Shown here in pieces: positions 7,558 through 64,000 of a stretch of DNA of 64,000 nucleotides (its first letter is position 1; each line of letters begins with the position of its first letter). The position numbers and the translations under genes were made by a program. Origin of the DNA: Candidatus Limnocylindrales bacterium (lineage in GTDB: Bacteria; Chloroflexota; Limnocylindria; Limnocylindrales; CSP1-4); the NCBI GenBank assembly GCA_036392215.1, contig DASVYJ010000091.1, forward strand, positions 1,115 to 65,114. Direction: 5' to 3'. The notes below the pieces were generated by a model, which was not told the DNA's origin, searched no databases, and saw only the letters and a list, made by a program, of their open reading frames with translations.

Positions 7558-7589
7558 GCGTCGCGCCGGCAGGTCGGTGATCGCGGAGG

Positions 7590-8255
7590 TCAGGCCGAGG
7601 CTGAGGCCACGGCTTCCTGGGCGCTCCGAGCCAGCGCGACGGCCTCGGCGGCGTTGCGCCGGATCTCATCCCAGCGGCCCGCCGCGATCGCCGCCGTCGT
7701 CGCGATCCACGTCCCGCCGCAGGCCGCGACCTGTGGCAGGGCGAGCCAGTCCGCCAGGTTCGCCGGCCCGATGCCGCCCGTCGGCATGAAACGCAGGCCG
7801 CGATACGGGGCGGCGATCGCGGCCAGGTAGCGCGGGCCGCCGAGGGCCTCGGCCGGGAACAGCTTGAGCAGGCGCAGACCCCGGCCGAGGCCCGCCTCGA
7901 TCTCGCTCGGGGTCGCGACGCCCGGCACCACGGCCATGCCGCGCTCCTGGCAGCGCTCCACGACGGCCGGGTTGAGGCCCGGGGCGACGATGAACTCCGC
8001 CCCCGCGTCGAGGGCGCGGTCCACGGTCGCCGGATCGAGGACCGTGCCCGCGCCGACGAGGACGTCGGGTCGGGCCGCCCGCATCGCGGCGATGGCCGCG
8101 GCCGCGGCGTCGGTCCGGAACGTCACCTCGGCGAGCGGCAGGCCGCCCTCGGCGAGGGCCGCGGCGAGCGGGGCCGCGCCCGCCGCGTCGTCGATGACCA
8201 CGACGGGCACGACTCGCAGCGCCCCGAGGCGTGCGGCGAGGGTCTCGCTGTCCAC
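7590..8255 (-). CDS. eda: 2-dehydro-3-deoxyphosphogluconate (KDPG) / KHG aldolase
   Basis: 221 aa with the Eda-family pattern (VVPVVVIDD...GAGTVL...GPANLADWL). Confidence 0.8.
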   Translation of the reverse strand: MDSETLAARLGALRVVPVVVIDDAAGAAPLAAALAEGGLPLAEVTFRTDAAAAAIAAMRAARPDVLVGAGTVLDPATVDRALDAGAEFIVAPGLNPAVVERCQERGMAVVPGVATPSEIEAGLGRGLRLLKLFPAEALGGPRYLAAIAAPYRGLRFMPTGGIGPANLADWLALPQVAACGGTWIATTAAIAAGRWDEIRRNAAEAVALARSAQEAVASASA

Positions 8256-53394: not shown

Positions 53395-54735
53395 ATGGCC
53401 CACCCGATCCTGATGCCCAAGCCCGGTCAGATGACCGAGGAATGCGTCGTCGTGGCCTGGCGCAAGCGCGAAGGCGATCCCGTGCGCAAGGGCGACGTCC
53501 TGTTCGAGATCGAGACCGACAAGTCGGTGATGGACGTCGAGGCCTTCGACGAGGGCATCCTCCTGAGGCGCCTGGTCGAGGAGGGACAGACCGTCCCGGT
53601 GAACGCGGTCTGCGCCTACGTCGGCGAGCCCGGCGAGGCGGTCCCGGAGGTCGAGGCGGGGCAGCCCTTCACCCTGGCCGCCGAGCAGGCCGCAGCGCCC
53701 GTCTCGTCGCCCGTCGTCGCGGCGCCGGCGGGGTCCGCCGAGTCGACGGCATCGCGGCGGGCTGCGACGCCGACGGCGCCGGTCCCGTCCTCCACGTCGC
53801 TCGCGCCGCCGTCCGGAAGGCGGGCGATCAGCCCGCGCGCCAGCCGCCTCGCGGCCGAGGCGGGGATCGACCCGCGCGGCCTCGCGGGGAGCGGTCCGGG
53901 TGGCCGGATCGTCGAGCGTGACGTGCGGGCCGCCGTCGCGGCGGCAGACCCGGTTGCAGCGCCCGGTGCGGCATCGTCCGCGCCGCCGCCCGCCCCGCCC
54001 GCTGCGCCCGCGTCCGCCCCGCCGGCCCTTCCGGCCTGGGACGGCGAGGAGGAGCCGCGGCCGCTCAGCCGGATGCGCCGGGTCATCGCCGAGCGCCTCA
54101 GCTGGAGCACCTCGACGATCCCGCACTTCAGCGTCACCGTCAGCGTCGACATGACCCGCCTCCTCGCCCTGCGGAGCGAGCTGAAGGCGGCCGGCACGCA
54201 GCTCAGCGTCACCGACTTCGTCCTGGCGGCCACGGCCCAGACCCTCGCCGAGTTCCCCGAGGTGAACTCGCGGACCGACGGGAGCCAGCTCTGGCTGCGC
54301 CGCCGCGTCCACCTCGGCCTGGCCGTCTCGGTCCCCAACGGCCTCGTCGTGCCGGTCCTGCGCGACGCCGACCGGCGCTCCCTGGTGGAGCTCCACGAGC
54401 GGGCCGTCGCCCTCGCCGACGCCGCCCGCAACGGGACGCTGCCGCCCGACGAGCTCATCGGCAGCACGTTCACGGTCTCGAACCTCGGCATGTTCGGGGT
54501 CGACGAGTTCCGGGCCATCATCAACCCCGGCGAAGCGGCGATCCTTGCCGTCGGCAGCGTCCTGCCGACCGCGGTCGCCGTCGGCGAGGGGCTTGCCGTG
54601 CGGCAGATGATGAAGCTGACCCTCTCGGCCGATCACCGCCTCGTGGACGGCGAGCTGGGGGCGCGATTCCTCAACGCGCTCCGGCGCCGGCTGCAGGACG
54701 TCGAGGCGTTCCGGGCCGAGGTGCGGATGGCCTGA
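53395..54735 (+). CDS. dihydrolipoamide acyltransferase (E2) with lipoyl, E3-binding and catalytic domains
   Basis: Start MAHPILMPKPGQMTEE, in frame with track ORF 52675..54735. Lipoyl-lysine motif EIETDKS. Ala/Pro linkers. The SxxDHRxxDG catalytic motif is present as SADHRLVDG. Confidence 0.8.
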   Translation: MAHPILMPKPGQMTEECVVVAWRKREGDPVRKGDVLFEIETDKSVMDVEAFDEGILLRRLVEEGQTVPVNAVCAYVGEPGEAVPEVEAGQPFTLAAEQAAAPVSSPVVAAPAGSAESTASRRAATPTAPVPSSTSLAPPSGRRAISPRASRLAAEAGIDPRGLAGSGPGGRIVERDVRAAVAAADPVAAPGAASSAPPPAPPAAPASAPPALPAWDGEEEPRPLSRMRRVIAERLSWSTSTIPHFSVTVSVDMTRLLALRSELKAAGTQLSVTDFVLAATAQTLAEFPEVNSRTDGSQLWLRRRVHLGLAVSVPNGLVVPVLRDADRRSLVELHERAVALADAARNGTLPPDELIGSTFTVSNLGMFGVDEFRAIINPGEAAILAVGSVLPTAVAVGEGLAVRQMMKLTLSADHRLVDGELGARFLNALRRRLQDVEAFRAEVRMA

Positions 54736-54925
54736 CGCCCAGCGGCGTCGGTCGAGTTCGGGGAAGGAGGCAGGGCTGGCTAGCTGAACGGGATGGGGCT
54801 TCCGTCGCCCGCGTTCCCGAGCGTGTCGCACCGGGTCCCGACCCGGCCGTCGCTCGGGCCCGGAAGCCAGGCACGGCCGGCCGTCGCCGGCCGCTGGCAG
54901 CTGCGAACGGGCAAAGGAGCCAGAG

Positions 54926-56170
54926 ATGGGCAGGACGATCCTCCTGATCGGCACCCTCGACACCAAGGGCCACGAGTACGCCTATGTCCGTGACCTGATC
55001 ACGGCCCGCGGCCATCGGGCGTTCATGCTCGACGCTGGGGTGCTGGGCGAGCCACCGCCGGGCTTCGTTCCCGACAGCGCCGCGGCCCGGACCGCTGACG
55101 CCGGCGGCGAGTCGCTCGCCGCGCTCCGCGAGCGGCACGACCGCGGTCACGCCCTGGAGGTCATGGGCAAGGGCGCCCGCGCGCTCGCCCTCGAGCTCCT
55201 CGCGGATGGTGGCTTCGACGCGGTCCTGACGATGGGCGGCTCGGGCAACACCTCGATCGGCGCGACCGCGATGCAGGCCCTGCCCGTCGGGCTGCCCAAG
55301 CTCATCGTCTCGACGATGGCCTCCGGCAACGTCGGCCCGTACGTCGACGTGAAGGACATCTCCATGATGTACTCCGTCGTCGACGTGGCCGGCCTCAACC
55401 GCATCGGCCGGCGGATCCTGGCGAACGCCGCCGGGGCCGTCTGCGGGATGGCCGAGCAGGTGGTCCCCGAGGCCGAGGAGAAGCCGCTCGTCGCGGCGAC
55501 GATGTTCGGCGTCACCACGCCCTGCGTCGACCGCTTCCGTGAGCGGCTCGAGTCGGCCGGCTTCGAGCTCCTCGTCTTCCACGCCGTCGGGTCCGGCGGC
55601 CGGGCGATGGAATCGCTCGTCAGCGACGGCTTCATCACCGCCCTCGGCGACATCACCACGACGGAGTGGTGCGACGAGCTGGTCGGCGGCGTCCTCTCCG
55701 CGGGCCCGACCCGCCTCGACGCGGCCGCCGCCAGGGGCATCCCCCAGGTCGTCTCGCTCGGCGCCCTCGACATGGTGAACTTCGGGCCGATGGAGACCGT
55801 CCCGGAGCGATTCCGCGGCCGGAAGCTCTACGTCCACAACCCCCAGGTCACCCTGATGCGGACGACCCCGCAGGAGTGCGCCCAGCTCGGCGAGATCATC
55901 GCCGCCAAGCTCAACCGCTCGACCGGTCCCGTCGCCCTGTTCGTGCCCCTGCGGGGCGTCAGCGCGATCGACGTCGAGGGCACGCCGTTCTTCGATCCCG
56001 AGGCCGACGCCGCGCTCTTCGAGGCCATCCGCGCCCACCTCGACCGCTCCGTCGTCGACCTCGTGGAGCTGGACCTTGCCATCAACGACCCGGTCTTCGC
56101 CGACGCGATGGCCGACCGCCTGCTGGCGATGCTCGGCGCCCGCCAGCCCGTCGCCGCCGCCAGCCACTAG
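54926..56170 (+). CDS. Tm-1-like ATP-binding protein (UPF0261 family)
   Basis: 414 aa with an N-terminal MGRTILLIGTLDTKGHEY pattern typical of UPF0261. Paired with the next gene as in other genomes. Confidence 0.7.
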   Translation: MGRTILLIGTLDTKGHEYAYVRDLITARGHRAFMLDAGVLGEPPPGFVPDSAAARTADAGGESLAALRERHDRGHALEVMGKGARALALELLADGGFDAVLTMGGSGNTSIGATAMQALPVGLPKLIVSTMASGNVGPYVDVKDISMMYSVVDVAGLNRIGRRILANAAGAVCGMAEQVVPEAEEKPLVAATMFGVTTPCVDRFRERLESAGFELLVFHAVGSGGRAMESLVSDGFITALGDITTTEWCDELVGGVLSAGPTRLDAAAARGIPQVVSLGALDMVNFGPMETVPERFRGRKLYVHNPQVTLMRTTPQECAQLGEIIAAKLNRSTGPVALFVPLRGVSAIDVEGTPFFDPEADAALFEAIRAHLDRSVVDLVELDLAINDPVFADAMADRLLAMLGARQPVAAASH

Positions 56171-56179
56171 GAGCCTGTC

Positions 56180-57031
56180 ATGCCGTTCATCCCGCGCCAG
56201 GAGATCGTCCGCCGCCTCCGCGCCCAGATCGACGCCGGCCGACCCATCGTCGGCTGCGGCGCCGGCACCGGCATCTCGGCCAAGATGGCCGAAGCCGGTG
56301 GGGCGGACCTGATGATCATCTACAACAGTGGCCGCTACCGGATGGCGGGCCGCGGTTCGCTGGCGGGCCTGCTCGCCTACGGCGACGCCAACGGCATCGT
56401 CGTGGAGATGGCCGCCGAGGTCCTGCCGGTGGTCCGGGACACCCCGGTCCTCGCCGGCATCAACGGCACGGACCCGTTCCGGCTGCCGCGCGTCTTCCTC
56501 CGCCAGCTCAAGGAGCTCGGCTTCGACGGCGTCCAGAACTTCCCCACGGTCGGCCTCATCGACGGCAGCTTCCGGGCGAACCTGGAGGCCACCGGGATGG
56601 GCTACGGCAAGGAGGTCGAGTGGATCGCGATCGCCCACGAGCTCGACATGTTCACCTCGCCGTACGTCTTCGACGCTGACGACGCGCGGGCGATGGCCGA
56701 GGCGGGGGCCGACCAGCTCGTCGCCCACGTCGGGCTCACGACGGCGGGCACGATCGGCGCCGGCGTCGCGCTGACGCTCGACGAGGCCATCGAGCGGGTC
56801 ATGACGATCGCCGAGGCGGGCCGCTCGGTCCGCTCCGACATCATCGTCATCTGCCATGGCGGGCCGTTCGACGAGCCCGAGAACGTCGGGGAGGCGCTCC
56901 GGCGGATGCCGGGCGTCCAGGGCTTCTTCGGTGCGTCCAGCATCGAGCGCCTGCCCACGGAGCGGGCGATCCGCGGCCAGGTCGAGGAGTTCAAGCGACT
57001 CGCGGTGGCCCAGCCGGCCGGCGTTGCCTGA
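56180..57031 (+). CDS. phosphoenolpyruvate-hydrolase-like TIM-barrel protein (partner of the Tm-1-like protein)
   Basis: 283 aa ([27 protein letters not shown]...). PEP-mutase / isocitrate-lyase superfamily-like. Confidence 0.65.
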
Positions 57032-57107
57032 CGCGCGCCACTCGAGTCCATTCCCAGCGGGGCCCGCTCCGGCGGGCCCCGCTCCCCTTCGCCATCCCGG
57101 AGCCACG

Positions 57108-57911
57108 ATGACCGAGTCCCGCCGCGCCGCGCCACGCACCGCCGTCCCGTCCGCCGGCGGGGCGGCGATGGTGCTCGACGTCGCCCTGGTGCCGGCCGCC
57201 GCGCGCACCTGGCCGGAGACCGTCTGCGTCGTCGTCGACGAGCTGCGGGCGAGCTCGACGATCACGACCTGGCTCGACCTGGGCTGCTCGACGCTGTACC
57301 TGACCCGCGGCCTGGCGGAGGCGCGCCGGCTGGCCGGGCAGCACGGCGCCCTGCTGGCGGGCGAGCGACGGGGACTGACGCCGCGCGGTTTCGACGTCAA
57401 CAACTCGCCCGCGGCGCTGGCCCGCCTCGAGGTGGCCGGCCGCCCCGGTGTGCTCTCCACGTCCAATGGGACGGCGGTCCTCTCGCGGCTCCGCCACATG
57501 CCCGCGGTCCTCGTCGGCTGCCTGCTGAACGCCTCCGCGGTCGCGGTCGCGGCTCTCGAGCTGGCGGTCGCCCTGGACCGGCCCGTCGGCATCGTCTGCG
57601 CGGGGGTCCTCGGCCGGTTCGCCTTCGACGACGCCTACGCGGCCGGCGTGATCGCGGATCGGCTCCTGGCCGCCGCGGCCGCGGCCGGGACCGCGCTCGA
57701 GAGGACGGACGCGACGCTCGCGGTCCGCAGGCTCGCGGCGTCCTGGCCCGACCCCATCGCCGCGCTCGAGGCCTCGGCGAGCGGGCACCTCGTCCACGCC
57801 ATCGGCCAGGGCGAGGACGTCGCCTTCTGCGGGCGGGTCGACGTGAGCTCGACGGTGCCGGTGCTGTGGCCGGACCTGCCGTTGCGCGTGGAGCCGCTCG
57901 AGCGGCCGTAG
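57108..57911 (+). CDS. 2-phosphosulfolactate-phosphatase (ComB)-family protein
   Basis: ComB-like pattern (VDELRASSTI..., NGT, ...). Start at 57108 or at the ATG at 57168 (MVLDVALV). Confidence 0.6.
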   Translation: MTESRRAAPRTAVPSAGGAAMVLDVALVPAAARTWPETVCVVVDELRASSTITTWLDLGCSTLYLTRGLAEARRLAGQHGALLAGERRGLTPRGFDVNNSPAALARLEVAGRPGVLSTSNGTAVLSRLRHMPAVLVGCLLNASAVAVAALELAVALDRPVGIVCAGVLGRFAFDDAYAAGVIADRLLAAAAAAGTALERTDATLAVRRLAASWPDPIAALEASASGHLVHAIGQGEDVAFCGRVDVSSTVPVLWPDLPLRVEPLERP

Positions 57912-57935
57912 CGCGCGGCCGGCGGCGCGGCCGGT

Positions 57936-58472
57936 TCAGGCGCGCGCTGCGAGGGCCCGCAGAACGGCCGCGGCGACCTCGGCCGGCGCCGCGTCGGCGT
58001 CGATCTCCGCGCCTGGCTCGTCGGGCTCGAGCGGCTCGAGCGTGTCGAGCTGGCTGGGCAGGAGCGAGGCGGGCATGTAGTGGCCGGTCCGCCGGGCCAG
58101 CCGCGCCGCGAGCACCGCCTCCGGCACGACGAGGTGGGCGAACCAGACCGACGGATGGCCGACCCGTAGCAGGTCGCGGTACGCCCGCCGGAGGGCGGAG
58201 CAGGTCGCGAGCGCATCCTGGGCCGCCTGCTCGCGCTCGCCGATCCAGGTTGCGAGGGCCTCGAGCCACGGCCGCCGGTCCGCCTCGGTCAGGGCGTGGC
58301 CGGCGTGCATCTTGGCGACGTTGGCCGCGGGATGGAAGTCGTCGCCCTCCGCCGCCGGCCAGCCGAGGCGGGCGACGAGCTCGGCCATCACGGTCGACTT
58401 GCCGCAGCCGGAGACGCCCATCAGGACGACCGTCGTCGTGCGGAGCGGGGCGACGTCGGGCTGTGGCTGCAC
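57936..58472 (-). CDS. gntK: gluconokinase (shikimate-kinase-like, thermoresistant GntK type)
   Basis: P-loop VVLMGVSGCGKST and the motif CSALRRAYRDLLR, typical of GntK. Start tentatively GTG at 58472; the ATG of MGVSG... is also possible. The long track ORF N-terminus is junk. Confidence 0.7.
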   Translation of the reverse strand: MQPQPDVAPLRTTTVVLMGVSGCGKSTVMAELVARLGWPAAEGDDFHPAANVAKMHAGHALTEADRRPWLEALATWIGEREQAAQDALATCSALRRAYRDLLRVGHPSVWFAHLVVPEAVLAARLARRTGHYMPASLLPSQLDTLEPLEPDEPGAEIDADAAPAEVAAAVLRALAARA

Positions 58473-58616
58473 AGTGCCAAGGCTAGCGCGCCGGGGCGGC
58501 GAGCCGTTTCGGGACGTCCGTCCCTTGACGCATCCGCCTGCGCCGCCGGAGGCTTGGGCTCCGCGTCCCGATTCACCTCCGGAAGATTCATCCCCGGATC
58601 CAGAGGGAGCGGCGAC

Positions 58617-59090
58617 GTGGCGACGAGCAAGCGGCAGATCGACGAGTTCTGGGAGCTGCGGCGACTGGCCGTGGTCGGGGTCTCGCGGGATCCCAAGCAC
58701 TTCTCCAACACGATCTGGCAGGAGCTCCGCCAGCGGCGGTACGAGGCTGTCCCGGTCAACCCGAACACGGAGCTGCTCGACGGGCAGCGCTGCTACGCCC
58801 GCGTCGGCGACATCGAGCCGCCGGTCCAGGGAGCCGTGATCCTGACCCCGGCCGCGGCCAGCGAGCAGGTCGTTCGCGACTGCGCAGCCGCGGGCATCCG
58901 CCGCGTGTGGCTGCACAGGGGCGCGGGCGGCGGCCTCGGGGCGGTCAGCCCCGCCGCCGTGGCCGCCTGCGAGGAGCTCGGGATCGAGGCCGTCGTCGGC
59001 TTCTGCCCGTTCATGTTCCTGCCGGGCACGCCGTTCTTCCACGGCCTCCACGCCTTCGCCAAGAAGGTCACCGGGAGCTACCCGCGATGA
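58617..59090 (+). CDS. CoA-binding-domain protein (YccU/YneT-like)
   Basis: GTG after GAGGGAG. 157 aa with motif VAVVGVSRDPKHFSNTIWQEL...YEAVPVNP. Confidence 0.6.
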   Translation: MATSKRQIDEFWELRRLAVVGVSRDPKHFSNTIWQELRQRRYEAVPVNPNTELLDGQRCYARVGDIEPPVQGAVILTPAAASEQVVRDCAAAGIRRVWLHRGAGGGLGAVSPAAVAACEELGIEAVVGFCPFMFLPGTPFFHGLHAFAKKVTGSYPR

Positions 59091-59560
59091 GCGTGGGGAC
59101 CGGCGGGGCCGACAAGGCGGCCGCCGGCGAGGGGCAGCGGACCGCGGTCGTCGTCTACCGCAGCGCGACCGGGACCACGCGCCGGTACGCGGAGGCCATC
59201 GGTGCCCACCTGGCCTCGCGCGGCCTCGCCGTCACGGTCCGCTCCGTCGGCGACTGCGAGATGACGGCCCTGCCGACCGCCGACTTCGTGCTGTTCGGCT
59301 GCTGGACGAGCGGGCTCTTTGTGGTGGGCCAGCACCCGGACCGGCCGTGGCTCGATTTCGCCCGCGACCTGCCACGCCTGGAGCGGCCGAGGATCGGGCT
59401 GTTCACGACGTACAAGCTGCTGACCGGCAGCATGTTCGGGCGGATGCGCGAGCGGCTGGCGGGTCGCACGGCGGAGCCCGAGCTCGAGTTGAAGTCGCGC
59501 GATGGGAGTCTGTCGCCGGCCGACCGAGGCGCCCTCGACCGGTTCGTCGGGCTCGCCTGA
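59087..59560 (+). CDS. flavodoxin-like fold protein
   Basis: ATG overlaps the upstream stop. 157 aa with motif VVVYRSATGTTRRYAEAIGAHL. Confidence 0.5.
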   Translation: MSVGTGGADKAAAGEGQRTAVVVYRSATGTTRRYAEAIGAHLASRGLAVTVRSVGDCEMTALPTADFVLFGCWTSGLFVVGQHPDRPWLDFARDLPRLERPRIGLFTTYKLLTGSMFGRMRERLAGRTAEPELELKSRDGSLSPADRGALDRFVGLA

Positions 59561-59676
59561 CGGCTGCCGCGCCGGGTCGCGCGGTCGCCGCCTCGCGGCC
59601 TGCGGCCCGCGCTACGCTGACGCTCGCGCCGCACGCGTAACCGGGGCGAAAGGTACGGGCCACGAGCATCTCCGCC

Positions 59677-60012
59677 ATGGACACGCTGCGAACCCCCACC
59701 GCGATCGACCGCGATCGCGCCATCGCCCGCCTCCGCCGGCTGACCCTCTCGACTGCCGCCGCAGCCCTCGCCGGGACGCTCGGCTTCGGCGCCCTCACCG
59801 CCGCGACGGGCCATGCCTCGAGCGGCGGCACGTCCGCCGCCGGCACGGCCCAGGCGGCCTCGACCACGACGGCCTCGACCACCACCGGCTCGGCGGCCTC
59901 GTCGCGGACCACGACAGGCTCGACCTCTACGAGCTCGACCCCCCAGACCATCGTCGGCAGCCTCACCGGCGCCGGCTCCGGCTCGGCGCAGGTCTCCTCC
60001 GGCGGCTCGTGA
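59677..60012 (+). CDS. small membrane-anchored protein with Ser/Thr/Gly/Ala-rich low-complexity tail (paralog A)
   Basis: 111 aa: conserved N-terminus MDTLRTPTAIDRDRAIARLRRLTLS, one TM helix, then a low-complexity tail. Its stop overlaps the apbE GTG start (GTGA). Confidence 0.5.
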   Translation: MDTLRTPTAIDRDRAIARLRRLTLSTAAAALAGTLGFGALTAATGHASSGGTSAAGTAQAASTTTASTTTGSAASSRTTTGSTSTSSTPQTIVGSLTGAGSGSAQVSSGGS

Positions 60013-61001
60013 CGGAGGCGCCGCCGTCCCGCTCCTGGCGTGCCATCGGCACGTCCGTCCACGTCCTGGTGACCGCGCAGCCCGACCTCGAGCCCGCGGC
60101 CCGCGCCGTCGCCCGCGTCCTCGACGACGTCGACCTCGCCTACAGCCGGTTCCGCCCCGACAGCGAGCTGCGCCGGCTCGACGTCCGGCCTGGCCGCCCC
60201 GCGGTCGTGAGCCCGCTCCTCGGGCTGGCCGTCGGGACCGCCCTGCGCGCGGCCCGCCTGACCGGCGGTGCCGTGGACCCGACCGTCGGCCGCGCGATGC
60301 GCCTGGCCGGCTACGACCTCGATTTCGCCTCGCTCGCCCGCGTCGGCGGACAGCTCGAGGTGCGCCTCGAGCCGGTGCCGGGCTGGCAGGCGGTTCGGTT
60401 CGACCCGCGGACCCGCGAGCTCTCGATGGCCGAGGGCGTCGAGCTCGACCTGGGCTCGACCGGCAAAGCCCTGGCGGCCGACCTCGCGGCCGAGGCGGCC
60501 CTGATCGCGATCGACGGCGAGCGCGCCGCCGCGGCCGAGCCCTTGACCCCCGACGGTGGGGCGCTGCCCGAGCCCGGCGTCCTGGTGAGTCTCGGCGGGG
60601 ACATCGCGATGGCCGGCACGGCCCCCGAGGGCGGCTGGCGGATCCTGGCCGCCGAGGACAGCGACACGCCGCCGGACGCGCCGGGCGAGGTCATCGCCCT
60701 GGCCCACGGCGCGGTCGCGACCTCCAGCACCACCGTCCGCCGCTGGGAGCGCGGCGACGTACACCTCCACCACCTCCTCGACCCGGCGACCGGCCGGCCC
60801 GCCGAGAGCCCCTGGCGGACGGTGAGCGTCGTCGCCGTGACGTGCGTGGACGCGAACGCGGCGGCGACGGCCACGATCGTCAAGGGTGCCGCGGGGCTCG
60901 ACTGGCTCACGGCGCAGAGGCTGCCGGCGCGCCTCGTCGGCCGCGACGGAGGGGTCGTCCGGATCGGCGGCTGGCCGGAGCCCGTCGCCTCGCGGGCATA
61001 G
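60009..61001 (+). CDS. apbE: FAD:protein FMN transferase (ApbE family)
   Basis: GTG start in frame with track ORF 59502..61001. ApbE motifs (WRAIGTSVHVLV, LDLGSTGKALAADLAA, VSLGGDIAMAG). The ORF N-terminus upstream of 60009 is junk. Confidence 0.8.
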   Translation: MTEAPPSRSWRAIGTSVHVLVTAQPDLEPAARAVARVLDDVDLAYSRFRPDSELRRLDVRPGRPAVVSPLLGLAVGTALRAARLTGGAVDPTVGRAMRLAGYDLDFASLARVGGQLEVRLEPVPGWQAVRFDPRTRELSMAEGVELDLGSTGKALAADLAAEAALIAIDGERAAAAEPLTPDGGALPEPGVLVSLGGDIAMAGTAPEGGWRILAAEDSDTPPDAPGEVIALAHGAVATSSTTVRRWERGDVHLHHLLDPATGRPAESPWRTVSVVAVTCVDANAAATATIVKGAAGLDWLTAQRLPARLVGRDGGVVRIGGWPEPVASRA

Positions 61002-61061
61002 CCGCCCGGACCCCGGGACGGGACCCGGGGGCCGGGCGACGGTCACGCGGCCCCGGACGTG

Positions 61062-61445
61062 TCAGGCGCCGCGCGGGAAGAGGCGGGCGACGCGCGAGCT
61101 GTAGCGGGTGATGGACTCGTTGACCAGCGGCCAGCAGTCCAGCGCCAGCCGCTCCGCCTCGCGGCGGCCGGCGGCCGTCACCTCGTAGCGCGGCGGCGCC
61201 TCCGCCGAGGCCGCCAGGAAGCCGTCGTCCTGGAGCTGGTGGAGGAGGGGATAGGACGCCGGCGGCACCCGCAGCGGACGGACGAGCGGCGAGATCCGGT
61301 CGAGGACGTCCAGGCCGGTGAGGGCGCCAGCGTCCTCGAGCTCGCGGAGGACGAGGAGGCTGACCAGCTCGCGTTCGAGCCGGCCGGCGGTCCGGCGGGT
61401 CGGTCGAGGCAGCGCCAGCGTCGGCGCGTCGAGGAGGGCGGTCAT
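61062..61445 (-). CDS. PadR-family transcriptional regulator
   Basis: 127 aa with a winged-helix region (LVSLLVLRELEDAGALTGLDVLDRISPL...YPLLHQLQDDGFL). Confidence 0.65.
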   Translation of the reverse strand: MTALLDAPTLALPRPTRRTAGRLERELVSLLVLRELEDAGALTGLDVLDRISPLVRPLRVPPASYPLLHQLQDDGFLAASAEAPPRYEVTAAGRREAERLALDCWPLVNESITRYSSRVARLFPRGA

Positions 61446-61602
61446 GGTCGGCTCCTTGCTGCGGCCGGGCGGTGCGAGCCCGGCGCCAGCGACCGTAGCG
61501 ACGCCGTCTGTCGGTCCGGTTACGGACGCGGCACGCCGCTACCCGTAAATGGACAGTGACTTCGTAATCGTTCCGAAAGGGAATGCCGGCGAGACTCGTT
61601 CC

Positions 61603-61983
61603 ATGGACAGCCTTCGCATCCCCAGCCCCACCGACCGCGAGGTCGGCCTGCGCCGGCTGCGCGACCTGACCCTGAGTGTCGCCGTCGCGGGCACTGCGGG
61701 CGCGATCGCCTTCGGGGCGATCGCGGCCTTCTCGAACCCCGGCCAGCCGCGGAACGCGACGAGCGCGACCGGCGGCACGCTCGACGGCCTGCAGGGTGCC
61801 GTGGGCGCCGCCGCGACCCCCCTGTCGGGCGACGACGGCACCACCCTCGAGGATGGCGGCGGCCAGGCTGCTGTCGGCCAGGCGCCGGCCTTCCAGGCCC
61901 CCGCGTTCCAGGCGCCCCAGCAGCTCCCCTTCGGCTTCTCCGGCGGCGGCCACGCCGCGTCCGGCGGCTCGGCCGTCCGCTGA
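61603..61983 (+). CDS. small membrane-anchored protein with Ser/Thr/Gly/Ala-rich tail (paralog B)
   Basis: Start MDSLRIPSPTDREVGLRRLRDLTLS (aa 19 of the track ORF), aligning with the paralog A N-terminus. One TM helix followed by a Gly/Ala/Thr/Gln-rich tail. Confidence 0.5.
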   Translation: MDSLRIPSPTDREVGLRRLRDLTLSVAVAGTAGAIAFGAIAAFSNPGQPRNATSATGGTLDGLQGAVGAAATPLSGDDGTTLEDGGGQAAVGQAPAFQAPAFQAPQQLPFGFSGGGHAASGGSAVR

Positions 61984-62026
61984 CAGCGCCGCCGGACACC
62001 GCCCGCAGGCCCCCGAGGATCGACCC

Positions 62027-62629
62027 GTGAACGACACCGTCCTGTGGTACGCGACCCGCGGCGCGGGCATCGTCTCGCTGCTCCTGTTCACCGCGGTCGT
62101 CGTCCTCGGCATCCTCCAGACGCTGCGCTGGCAGACCGCCTCGTGGCCGCGCTTCCTGACGGCCGGCCTGCACCGCAACCTCGCCCTCCTCTCGGTCGCC
62201 TTCCTGGCCGTCCACATCGTCACGGCGGTCGTCGACCCGTACACCGCCCTCGGCCCGCTGGCCGCCCTGGTCCCCTTCTCGTCGCCGTACCGCCGGCTCT
62301 GGCTCGGCCTCGGCGTCGTCGCCTTCGACCTGCTGCTCGCCCTCGTCCTGACCAGCCTCGTCCGCGTCCGCCTCGGCCACCGCGCATGGCGGGCCGTCCA
62401 CTGGCTGGCCTACGCCGCCTGGCCTGTCGCGCTCCTGCACGGGGCCGGGACCGGCAGCGACACCGGGGCGCTCTGGATGCGACTGCTCGACGCCACCTGC
62501 GTGGTCCTCGTCGTCGGGGCCACGACGATGCGCCTGACCTTCGAGCGGCAGGCCCTCGATCGGCCGCCGGCCGCGCCCGCCTGGGTCGGCTCGACCGGCC
62601 GGGCTCGCGCGAACGGCCGGGAGGACTGA
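62027..62629 (+). CDS. ferric-reductase-like transmembrane domain protein (MsrQ/YedZ-like, 6 TM, bis-His heme sites)
   Basis: GTG start (VNDTVLWYATRGAG...). Conserved His residues in TM helices (LHRNLALLSVAFLAVH, HWLAYAAWPVALLH). Confidence 0.6.
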   Translation: MNDTVLWYATRGAGIVSLLLFTAVVVLGILQTLRWQTASWPRFLTAGLHRNLALLSVAFLAVHIVTAVVDPYTALGPLAALVPFSSPYRRLWLGLGVVAFDLLLALVLTSLVRVRLGHRAWRAVHWLAYAAWPVALLHGAGTGSDTGALWMRLLDATCVVLVVGATTMRLTFERQALDRPPAAPAWVGSTGRARANGRED

Positions 62630-62630
62630 G

Positions 62631-63890
62631 GTGAACGGCCCCATCCTGCCCCGCCTGCTGGCTGGCCCGCCGCTGGGCGCCGGCACCGAATCCCTGGCCG
62701 ACCACGTCGCCCGGATCGGGCGCGCCCCCGTCGGCGGCCCGTGGCTCGTGGACGAGCTCGACGCGAGCGGCCTGCTCGGTCGCGGCGGCGCCGGCTTCCC
62801 CGTCGGGCGCAAGTGGCGCAGCGTCGCCGAGCGACCGGCGGGGCCGGCGGTCGTCGTCGTGAACGGCGCCGAGGGCGAGCCGGGCAGCGCGAAGGATCGG
62901 GCGCTCATGACCCTCCGGCCGCACCTCGTCCTGGACGGGGCCGTGCTCGCGGCCGAGACGATCGGCGCTGAGGTGGTCCACGTCTACGTCGGCGCCGAGC
63001 ACGTCGCGGCGCTGCGGACGATGCACGCTGCGATCCTCGAGCGGGGCGCCGGCTGGCGGGTCCCCGTCTTCCTCGTCGCGGCACCCCGCGGCTACGTCGC
63101 CGGGGAGCAGTCGGCCGTGATCCACTACATCGAGGCCGGCGACGCCCGGCCGACGACCCCCTACCGGCCCTGGGAGCGGGGTGTCGACGGCGCGCCGACC
63201 CTCGTCCAGAACGTCGAGAGCCTCGCCCACGTCGCGCTCATCTCCCGCCACGGCGCGGGGTGGTTCGCAGAGGCCGGCCGAGCCCACTCCCCCGGGACGG
63301 CGCTCGTCACCCTCAGCGGCGCCGGGCTGCGGCTCGGCGTCCGCGAGATCGAGCTCGGCACGCCCCTCGGCGAGGTGCTCGACTCGGCCGGCGTGGACCG
63401 CGACGCGCTGCGAGGCGTCCTGCTCGGCGGCTACTTCGGGACGTGGGCCCGCCTCGACGACGGGACCGCGGCGCTGCCGCTGGACCCGGTCGGCCTGCGC
63501 GAGCGCGGCCTCGCCTTCGGAGCCGGCGTCCTGACCCTCCTCGGCCGGGACGAGTGCGGCGTGGACGCGACGGCCCGGATCATGGCCTTCCTGGCCGGCG
63601 AGAGCGCCGCCCAGTGCGGGCCGTGCGTCTTCGGCCTGCGGGCGCTCGCCGATGCGACCGCGCGCCTTGCGGTCGGCCGCGCCGAGCCGGGCGACCTCGG
63701 CCGCATCGAGCGCTGGGCCGCGATGGTCCAGGGCCGCGGCGCCTGTGCCCATCCGGACGGCGCCGTCGGCCTGCTCGCCAGCTCCTTCGTCGCGTTCGGC
63801 GACGAGTACGCCCGCCACGCCGAGCGAGGTGACTGCTCGGCGACGCCGGGTCCGGCGATGGCCGCGCGCCCGGCCGGGGCAGCCGCGTGA
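62631..63890 (+). CDS. NuoF-like NADH-binding flavo-iron-sulfur protein (51-kDa-subunit family)
   Basis: GTG after GGGAGGA. Motif GRGGAGFP (FMN/NADH site) and a C-terminal 4Fe-4S Cys cluster (CGPCVFG...C). Confidence 0.7.
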   Translation: MNGPILPRLLAGPPLGAGTESLADHVARIGRAPVGGPWLVDELDASGLLGRGGAGFPVGRKWRSVAERPAGPAVVVVNGAEGEPGSAKDRALMTLRPHLVLDGAVLAAETIGAEVVHVYVGAEHVAALRTMHAAILERGAGWRVPVFLVAAPRGYVAGEQSAVIHYIEAGDARPTTPYRPWERGVDGAPTLVQNVESLAHVALISRHGAGWFAEAGRAHSPGTALVTLSGAGLRLGVREIELGTPLGEVLDSAGVDRDALRGVLLGGYFGTWARLDDGTAALPLDPVGLRERGLAFGAGVLTLLGRDECGVDATARIMAFLAGESAAQCGPCVFGLRALADATARLAVGRAEPGDLGRIERWAAMVQGRGACAHPDGAVGLLASSFVAFGDEYARHAERGDCSATPGPAMAARPAGAAA

Positions 63891-64000
63891 TGGCGCGCCT
63901 CGAGCTCCGGGTCGACCGCATCCGCTGCGACGGCGCGGGGCTGTGCGCCGAGCTGCTGCCCGAGATCGTCAGCCTCGACGACTGGGGCTACCCCATCGTG
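63890..64000 (+). CDS. ferredoxin (partial, continues beyond window)
   Basis: MARLELRVDRIRCDGAGLCAELLPEIVSLDDWGYPIV resembles small 3Fe/4Fe ferredoxins. TGATG overlap with the NuoF-like gene. Confidence 0.5.
   Translation, partial: MARLELRVDRIRCDGAGLCAELLPEIVSLDDWGYPIV

Follow-up and report, generated by a model that had tools for sequence, protein, structure and literature searches.

Small single-pass membrane proteins as putative ApbE substrates in an MsrQ-like flavinylation-associated gene cluster of Limnocylindria

The prevailing view of protein flavinylation is that the attachment of flavin mononucleotide (FMN) by ApbE-family transferases needs a folded acceptor domain, and that extracytosolic targets need both an exported ApbE and exported flavin adenine dinucleotide (FAD). 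The closest described systems are the MsrQ-like flavinylation clusters, which are mainly actinobacterial and comprise apbE, an FMN_bind gene and a PF01794 gene, with a NuoF-like PF10589 protein in 31 (Meheust et al. 2021, PMC8238504). The pipeline of that survey demanded a signal peptide or a lipobox on ApbE or on a known substrate, and 4% of genomes carried an orphan apbE without a known substrate (Meheust et al. 2021, PMC8238504). Here we describe a gene cluster in a 64,000-nt stretch of DNA, referred to as the window, from a metagenome-assembled genome (MAG) of Candidatus Limnocylindrales (Chloroflexota), which the initial annotation had taken for actinobacterial. By its sequence, the system appears to be an MsrQ-like flavinylation-associated variant, with a previously undescribed family of small membrane proteins as putative substrate.

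We propose, with a probability of about 0.45, that these small proteins are natural flavin-tags, acting as tethered FMN acceptors of an MsrQ-like electron-export module driven by reduced nicotinamide adenine dinucleotide (NADH). Flavinylation is suggested because a C-terminal heptad of the family is in register with the ApbE motif, because the genes are syntenic with apbE and overlap it, and because the cluster holds neither an FMN_bind gene nor any other protein bearing such a motif. With the class of Meheust et al., the locus shares apbE, a PF01794 six-helix di-heme protein and a cytosolic NAD(P)H-oxidising partner (PF01512 and PF10589). It differs in that there is no FMN_bind gene, in that ApbE has neither a signal peptide nor a lipidation site (judged from the start of its fold and its N-terminal sequence), in the presence of a domain-less small membrane protein, and in its Limnocylindria host. 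Since the published selection rule requires a signal peptide or lipobox, clusters of this kind would probably have been filtered out.

The engineered Flavin-tag (Tong et al. 2021; PMC12052999; PMC9400968) has in common with this family that a short unstructured terminal peptide suffices and that the ApbE is cytoplasmic and signal-less; however, it is artificial and has a canonical DGLSGAT core, whereas the present family would be a natural counterpart carrying [H/Q]xx[S/T]G[G/S]S at its C-terminus. The cytoplasmic ApbE of Klebsiella pneumoniae (PMC12052999) likewise has no signal peptide and works in the cytoplasm, but its substrate is a soluble fumarate reductase with an FMN-binding domain and not a membrane protein with a tail predicted outside. 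The Listeria PplA/FmnB/Ndh2/EetAB system is also found in a monoderm and uses surface-tethered covalent FMN to pass electrons from a membrane module to outside acceptors, as we propose here from the genes. In contrast, PplA is a lipoprotein whose FMN_bind domains are folded, FmnB acts outside the cytosol and depends on FAD export, and the membrane module is based on quinone rather than on MsrQ/NuoF. In the literature searched, we found no ApbE substrate described as domain-less or disordered.

All positions refer to the window, whose GC content is 73%; exact-sequence matches gave the locus tags VF763_10420 and VF763_10435 of the Candidatus Limnocylindrales MAG. Related loci (L001-L089) and proteins (P0005 and so on) carry our own labels. 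The features of the cluster are as follows.

59636-59676, plus strand: promoter/operator-like element before small A (gap-free conservation in 26 loci)
59677-60012, plus strand: small A, 111 aa, class-1-type family member (family profile; GC content at third codon positions, GC3, 92.9%)
59989-60009, plus strand: C-terminal heptad QVSSGGS (family motif), small A residues 105-111, with Ser111 as candidate FMN site
60009-61001, plus strand: ApbE-family FAD:protein FMN transferase, 330 aa (PF02424, E=4e-44), its GTG start lying in a GTGA over the small A stop
61062-61445, minus strand: divergent PadR-like winged-helix regulator (PF03551, E=6e-5; a weak match, 23.3 bits against a cutoff of 27)
61562-61602, plus strand: promoter/operator-like element before small B (gap-free conservation in 26 loci)
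61603-61983, plus strand: small B, 126 aa (family profile; GC3 93.7%)
61951-61971, plus strand: C-terminal heptad HAASGGS (family motif), small B residues 117-123, followed by AVR; candidate FMN site
62027-62629, plus strand: MsrQ-like membrane protein with a ferric-reductase domain (Ferric_reduct), 200 aa (PF01794, E=3e-10)
62631-63890, plus strand: NuoF-like NADH/FMN/4Fe-4S protein, 419 aa (Complex1_51K PF01512, E=2e-32; NADH_4Fe-4S PF10589, E=2e-17)
63890-64000, plus strand: Fer4_15 single-cluster ferredoxin (Pfam, 7e-6), 99 aa in full but cut by the window end; the full gene is seen in L003 and L007

The gene map and coordinates of the initial annotation agreed with the open reading frame (ORF) listing and Pfam, and its domain assignments for ApbE, the ferric reductase, the NuoF-like protein and the ferredoxin were recovered with Pfam and NCBIfam, the PadR match being the weak one. 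The frames of small A and small B are considered correct because their GC3 of 93-94% is like that of the neighbouring genes. ORFs of up to 973 aa on the opposite strand or in alternative frames over real genes (54671-63921) are the usual artefact of 73% GC and not genes.

The two small genes had been annotated as paralogs with a conserved N-terminus, and they are indeed homologous: BLASTP aligned their first 37 residues at E=7e-7, and each matched the family profile at about 1e-20. Neither matched any Pfam or NCBIfam family, and word-based searches retrieved just a few relatives. A profile built from five sequences and searched against 1.84 billion representatives (clusters at 50% identity) recovered 310 proteins at E<=1e-3, of which 56 reached E<=1e-10; nearly all were of 95-130 aa and matched end to end. 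All of these relatives are annotated as hypothetical and come from MAGs or metagenomes. The closest relative of small B is P0005 of GCA_936417055.1 (49% identity).

Members of the family have a basic N-terminus with the pattern R-x-R-A-x-x-R-L-R-x-L-T, then a hydrophobic segment, A-x-A-G-x-A-A-x-x-G-F-G-x-L-A-A, whose best 19-residue window has a median Kyte-Doolittle value of 1.67. The tail that follows has a median of 67 residues and is made up of 21% Thr, 18% Ser, 14% Ala, 14% Gly and 7% Pro, with 2.7% Lys plus Arg. Such a composition, rich in Thr, Ser, Ala, Gly and Pro and poor in Lys and Arg, is typical of exported linkers. An N-in, C-out topology with an extracytoplasmic tail is predicted because the N-terminal flank is richer in Lys/Arg than the C-terminal flank in 123/123 full-length members (median 4 against 0). 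The AlphaFold model of small A, made from a 75-sequence alignment, shows one continuous helix over residues 9-44, with a predicted local distance difference test score (pLDDT) of 94-96 over residues 11-30; the best 19-residue hydrophobic window begins at residue 22. Residues 50-105 have a pLDDT below 50, indicating a disordered tail, and according to this model small A has no folded domain able to hold a flavin. The single transmembrane helix expected by the initial annotation agrees with the model, and the outward-facing tail with the charge bias.

These results also bear on a reading in which the small proteins are flavinylated and the flavin lies at the cytoplasmic face, mediating between the NuoF-like protein or ferredoxin and the inner MsrQ-like heme, as FAD or free flavin does for STEAP and MsrQ. 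The conserved G-F-G in the middle of the hydrophobic segment would suit the re-entrant or C-in anchor that this arrangement needs, and an ApbE without export signal and the absence of any FAD exporter gene seen in the clusters would fit as well. However, the continuous helix of residues 9-44 shows no hairpin, the flanking charges strongly favour N-in if there is one span, and the tail (T, S, A, G and P 74%; K+R 2.7%) resembles an exported linker, so that we regard a cytoplasmic flavin as improbable.

The co-occurrence of the small family with apbE and with the ferric-reductase and NuoF-like genes, which had been suggested from the window, extends to other genomes. A scan from the ApbE side yielded 62 metagenome loci, of which 43 were distinct and evaluable; the same synteny was present in most of the 62. 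Counting without the family profile, 34/43 loci had, no more than 140 nt upstream of apbE, an ORF of 60 aa or longer whose product terminates in [S/T]G[G/S/T/A]S; among the other ORFs in the same DNA the figure was 3/1958. The scan from the small-protein side used one genome per species and a 12-sequence query that samples the DRDRA[IV]xRLR subfamily only. It gave 12 loci, 10 of them labelled as Limnocylindrales, Chloroflexia or Chloroflexi MAGs and 2 as Verrucomicrobiia. The order small-ApbE-Ferric_reduct-NuoF-like-Fer4_15 was observed in every sufficiently long locus among these 12 and several metagenome loci; longer metagenome contigs have the same order plus a second small paralog further downstream. 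The PF01794 gene and apbE are paired in more than 40 related loci. Exceptions to the gene order are L045 and L059 (NuoF-Fer4-ApbE) and L049, L050 and L058 (ApbE-NuoF-Fer4-small).

No FMN_bind (PF04205), DUF2271 or DUF3570 domain was found in the genes of the window or in the Pfam results for L001, L003-L008, L022, L024 and L027. Even some distant ApbE genes (34-47% identity to that of the window), beside which there is no profile match, have an upstream protein with a basic helix, a transmembrane segment and a Ser/Thr/Pro tail. These proteins end in ..GKVTSGGS (L069), ..TSGSKSGG or ..TSGSTAGG (L068, L074, L075) and ..GAATSSS (L087).

Several loci deserve separate mention. The sublineage of L049 (1-6910), L050, L057 and L058 has hybrid histidine kinase and response-regulator genes upstream and gave no tblastn match to the Ferric_reduct protein. 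The two Verrucomicrobiia-labelled loci, L011 (DATNBW010000152.1) and L016 (DATLVO010000200.1), have this cluster too, and their proteins share about 57-60% identity with those of the window, which points to misbinned Limnocylindria contigs or to horizontal transfer. On a low-GC metagenome contig (L088:1466-3420), an FNR-like protein of 343 aa (FAD_binding_6 and NAD_binding_1) with a Thr-rich end, ..QQPVSTVS, abuts an ApbE that is only 26% identical to that of the window; this may be an independent instance of a Ser/Thr tail beside ApbE.

The GTGA overlap of small A and apbE reported in the initial annotation is present, and a 4-nt overlap of the small-gene stop with the apbE start (GTGA or ATGA) is near-universal in related loci. 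Such an arrangement might also be read as a -1 frameshift joining the class-1 small gene to apbE, with the small protein serving as membrane anchor and linker to hold ApbE outside the cell. In all loci the reading frame of apbE, which is -1 to that of the small gene, stays open upstream, and a fusion would solve the problem of the missing signal peptide. Open alternative frames are nevertheless expected at 73% GC, no slippery heptamer was present in the 18 loci examined, no fused protein occurred among the top 150 family representatives, and the C-terminal motif is kept in paralogs without a downstream apbE. A frameshift is therefore very improbable.

The initial annotation had proposed the Ser/Thr-rich tails as ApbE substrates and had pointed to internal SGGTS and SATGGT stretches. 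The tails are still best read as substrates, but the candidate FMN site is the C-terminal heptad found throughout the family and not an internal low-complexity stretch; flavinylation at this site is putative. The family C-terminus reads G-x-[A/G]-[H/Q]-[V/A]-[T/S]-[T/S]-G-G-S, with the heptad [H/Q]-[A/V]-x-[S/T]-G-[G>S>A]-S in register with the 7-residue ApbE motif D-x-x-[S/T]-G-A-[S/T]. Counts were made on 138 members anchored on x-G-x-S within the last 12 residues, so that the counts of the anchored G and S are not independent. Position -6, which is Asp in the canonical motif, is His in 88/138 and Gln in 36/138 (124 together); V or A follows in 126 members, and T or S occupies the next two positions in 121 and 136, respectively. 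The second of these is the [S/T] that precedes the motif Gly (136/138), and this Gly occurs in every variant recovered through ApbE. Position -1, canonically Ala, is Gly in 123/138, Ser in 9 and Ala in 5. The last position is Ser in the heptads of small A and small B and in the 34/43 loci from the ApbE side, and the protein ends exactly at this Ser in 97/138 members.

A minority of members has a canonical core at the same position: L049, L050 and L058 end in HAVTGASR, and P0022, P0038, P0053, P0078 and P0141 have SGAS or TGAS. Among the remaining proteins of the cluster, none has [S/T]GA[S/T] or D..[S/T]G[A/G/S][S/T]. The motif is also kept in paralogs without a downstream apbE, namely small B and class-2 genes ending in ..HASTGGSH. 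According to a 2025 review of ApbE (PMC12052999), the motif is seven residues long, replacement of its Asp by Ala causes only a minor loss, Ser is accepted, and the engineered Flavin-tag performs best at a protein terminus. In published work, replacement of Ala by Val still allows about 50% flavinylation, and replacement by Gly is unreported. Small A has a second motif-like heptad, HASSGGT, directly after the helix (residues 46-52; 59812-59832), which is not conserved in the family.

The ApbE of the window retains the hallmark motifs DLGSTGKA, ATSS and HHLLDPxTGRP and aligns to T. maritima TM1553 (E=2e-23, from query residue 12), V. cholerae ApbE and T. pallidum Ftp. In the window and 16 other loci the fold begins at about residue 12, after an N-terminus of the type V/M-T-E-P-R-T-A-D-W-R-A-L-G-T-G-V. 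No hydrophobic segment, lipobox or twin arginine was present in these N-termini or in the upstream in-frame sequence. As a positive control, the NosX-like distant ApbE of L089 shows an obvious twin-arginine (Tat) signal. By sequence, the ApbE of these clusters is therefore a cytoplasmic enzyme, as has been described for other ApbEs (PMC12052999). Because it is signal-less and the tails are predicted outside, modification would have to precede export in the flavin-tag model. Tat export of a cytoplasmically modified small protein was considered and is unsupported: the conserved R-L-R-x-L-T provides no twin arginine at the boundary of the n- and h-regions.

The electron-transfer proteins agree with the description of a di-heme membrane protein in the initial annotation. 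In the Ferric_reduct protein, H49/H63 (H-x13-H) and H125/H138 (H-x12-H), plus H118, are invariant in 4 orthologues of 48-80% identity. This is reportedly the bis-heme spacing rule of the NOX/FRD literature. The NuoF-like protein reached 218.7 bits against the TIGR01959 NuoF equivalog, for which the cutoff is 558.65, and is thus not assigned as NuoF of complex I; its gene neighbours are those of the MsrQ-like protein and the ferredoxin, with no nuoE or nuoG adjoining. We infer an electron path from NADH through the NuoF-like protein and ferredoxin to the two hemes and on to an extracytoplasmic acceptor. This path agrees with that of the initial annotation and with the model of Meheust et al., the acceptor being what differs.

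Taken as a whole, the locus may be a Limnocylindria-type variant of the ApbE-associated MsrQ-like module in which the substrate with an FMN-binding domain is replaced by small single-pass proteins of about 100-125 aa. The signal-less, translationally coupled ApbE would move FMN from FAD to the terminal Ser of the heptad. The most likely site would be the cytoplasm, with the small protein already released and its uncharged tail still to be translocated: with about 110 residues, the small protein would probably be freed from the ribosome before membrane targeting, and its C-terminus could be tagged by the co-translated ApbE. The NuoF-like protein would oxidise NADH, electrons would pass via the Fer4_15 ferredoxin and the two MsrQ-like hemes to the tethered FMN outside the membrane, and the flexible leash would let the FMN reach an extracytoplasmic acceptor.

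A more detailed version can be put forward only tentatively. The small proteins would be the first natural flavin-tags, that is, fold-less ApbE substrates with FMN attached in the cytoplasm to the terminal Ser of [S/T]-G-G-S-COOH. The tail would then be exported and possibly O-glycosylated by GtrA/PMT_2, and would form a leash of about 20 nm contour length (about 67 residues). The FMN would be reduced by the NADH-fed MsrQ-like cytochrome and would shuttle electrons through the cell wall of a Chloroflexota class that is widespread in soil and freshwater.

Each small gene would head a transcription unit, with the upstream element as promoter/operator. The initial annotation had noted similar leaders before both genes, and their similarity extends to orthologues: 26 upstream regions were aligned gap-free on the ATG, the start codon being fixed as ATG by construction. 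Conserved are C[C/G]GAAAGG at -30..-23 (central A in 25/26), GT[A/C]A[T/C]C at -39..-34, A(-11) and T(-7) in 21/26 each with variable bases between them, and C(-1) in 25/26. The element of small A has GTAACC..CGAAAGG at -41..-23 and a -10-like GAGCAT at about -13..-8; that of small B has GTAATCGTTCCGAAAGG at -41..-23 and GAGACT at -12..-7. The AT enrichment claimed for both leaders applies to leader B (61555-61602; 54% GC against 73% in the window), whereas leader A has 70% GC. A Shine-Dalgarno (SD)-like tetramer at -16..-5 was found in 0/26 loci; this differs from other genes of the window, which are preceded by GAGGA (Ferric_reduct), GGGAGGA (NuoF-like) and GAGGGAG (CoA-binding). A box of the form N-A-N-N-N-T ending 7 nt before the ATG, together with C(-1)/A(+1), is the geometry of leaderless transcripts in actinobacterial and Deinococcus promoters. 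Because of the gap-free, ATG-anchored -10-like box, the C(-1) and the lack of an SD sequence, the leader is best read as a promoter plus operator common to all paralogs, for probably leaderless mRNAs.

Of the two roles offered for the leader in the initial annotation, a cis-element or a small RNA, the promoter-like positional pattern favours the former. A structured RNA in the 5' untranslated region, such as a riboswitch or a small-RNA target, could account for a leader that is shared by the two paralogs and conserved in other loci; its GAAA core might fold as a tetraloop, and class-1 genes have an upstream inverted repeat, GATGAC-N4-9-GTCATC. However, RNAalifold found 0 consensus pairs on the 26 leaders, an Rfam 15 covariance search of 59400-61750 gave no match at E<=1, and the geometry described above is that of a transcript starting at the ATG, which makes an RNA element quite unlikely.

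The inverted repeat is confined to class-1 (apbE-linked) genes, where it lies just upstream of, and overlaps, the GTCATC..GAAAGG element (approximately L015:6355-6385, L022:2180-2205 and L024:2255-2280); it is absent at both genes of the window. Other interpretations of the leader were set aside. For an extracytoplasmic function (ECF)-type -35/-10 reading of GGAAC..CGT[AC] the spacings are unfit, an upstream ORF (GTG-CGG-CCA-TGA overlapping the ATG) occurs in some class-1 loci only, and the manual registers of hairpins around GAAA are inconsistent between loci. A sigma-70 consensus scan of 59450-62100 returned 0 promoters and 0 intrinsic terminators, the consensus being too strict for an organism with 73% GC.

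With regard to the paralogs, different types can be distinguished by sequence and position. Class 1 (MKTAxRRSPxDRDRAVARLR.., ending in TGSS or TGGS) always lies ahead of apbE. Class 2 (MNHDPRPHIHRRRRAIxRLRSLT.., ending in TGGSH or TGGSG) follows the ferredoxin gene or an OmpR-type response regulator and histidine kinase. It stands at the head of GtrA-PMT_2 in L012, L016, L018 and L022, and a LiaF-TM/Toastrack, PspC, LiaF set in L019, L021, L024 and L027. The third type comprises small B and P0005 (GCA_936417055.1) and is located directly ahead of the Ferric_reduct gene. By its position, the OmpR-type regulator of the cluster is a candidate binder of the upstream element. PadR, which the initial annotation had noted between the two units, did not occur in any of the long related loci examined from other organisms and cannot be the general regulator of the element. 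The arrangement in the window looks like an ancestral operon small-apbE-msrQ-nuoF-fdx that was split by a lineage-specific PadR-like gene and a relocated paralog.

The neighbouring genes outside the conserved core, both assigned by Pfam, are as follows.

58617-59090, plus strand: CoA_binding_2 protein gene
59090-59560, plus strand: flavodoxin-like protein gene

These two are kept beside the cluster in L001 only, and the other loci have different upstream genes. L001 (GCA_936417055.1) holds the nearest relative of the small B-msrQ-nuoF-fdx unit; there, a 125-aa DUF8412 gene (7563-7940) takes the place of small A-apbE-padR, and there is no apbE within 8 kb. Downstream of the ferredoxin, on the same contig, GtrA and PMT_2/YkcB_C glycosyltransferase genes follow (L003:3872-6387 and L007; past position 64000 of the window). 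The same pair stands after the cluster in L022 (8001-11169, with a 1-nt gap from the class-2 gene), L012 (12714-14180) and L018 (13043-14290), and could use the Ser/Thr-rich tails as O-glycosylation substrates. The envelope-stress sensory set is found at L021:10924-13477, L019:10947-, L024:8767-11314 and L027:10463-13100.

Several points weigh against the flavin-tag proposal. ApbE is signal-less in every cluster examined, whereas the tails are predicted to be extracytoplasmic, and modification before export is unprecedented for ApbE. The motif is non-canonical at two defining positions, with H/Q or other residues for D and G or S for A; in the set ascertained through ApbE, T, M, R, S, P and V are frequent at position -6, and K also occurs. 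In class-1 genes, the Gly-Gly codons and the terminal Ser codon (TCG or TCA) overlap the apbE start/SD region, which could be contributing to the conservation of the motif. Finally, the class-2 paralogs ahead of GtrA-PMT_2 or LiaF/PspC/Toastrack hint at an envelope function unrelated to flavin.

Most of these points would fit an alternative in which the small proteins carry no flavin and instead serve an island for envelope homeostasis (MsrQ/NuoF, a two-component system, GtrA-PMT_2 and LiaF/PspC/Toastrack) as accessory factors, sensors or scaffolds anchored in the membrane. In that case the tails would carry O-glycans or be what is sensed, and the C-terminal motif would serve in docking or processing. 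ApbE would either modify some unlinked protein in the cytoplasm or cleave FAD as a pyrophosphatase. The OmpR-type response regulator and histidine kinase inside many clusters would belong naturally to such an island, and class-2 N-termini give a sub-threshold match to PF25587 (Rv2743c/PspM), the best score, 24.6 bits from one partial class-2 member, staying below the cutoff of 27.7. The resemblance to PspM (Rv2743c) and LiaI-type partners extends to the position of class-2 paralogs beside LiaF/PspC/Toastrack. However, small A and small B do not match PF25587, no PspA gene was seen in the loci, and PspM occurs only in mycobacteria and corynebacteria and has two transmembrane helices where AlphaFold gives a single one here; homology to PspM was therefore rejected. 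An envelope role would also fail to account for the 4 nt that class-1 genes almost always share with apbE, for the exact 7-residue register together with the canonical TGAS/SGAS variants, and for the absence of another ApbE substrate nearby. We give this alternative a lower probability than the flavin-tag proposal, though still a substantial one.

Should the envelope alternative be true, the family would still mark a conserved, co-regulated island linking an NADH-driven MsrQ-like module, a glycosyltransferase and Psp/Lia-type genes. If the small proteins are natural flavin-tags, neither assumption of the prevailing view would hold for such a domain-less terminal tag, and a substrate could be named for some of the orphan-apbE genomes of the 2021 survey. 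The motif recognised by ApbE would be widened, with G or S at the Ala position and a dispensable Asp, and the locus would represent a minimal natural design for tethered-flavin electron export. To our knowledge, Limnocylindria have no well-studied cultured representative. In this class, which is abundant in soils and lakes, the finding would assign a function to a family of hypothetical proteins comprising 310 clusters.

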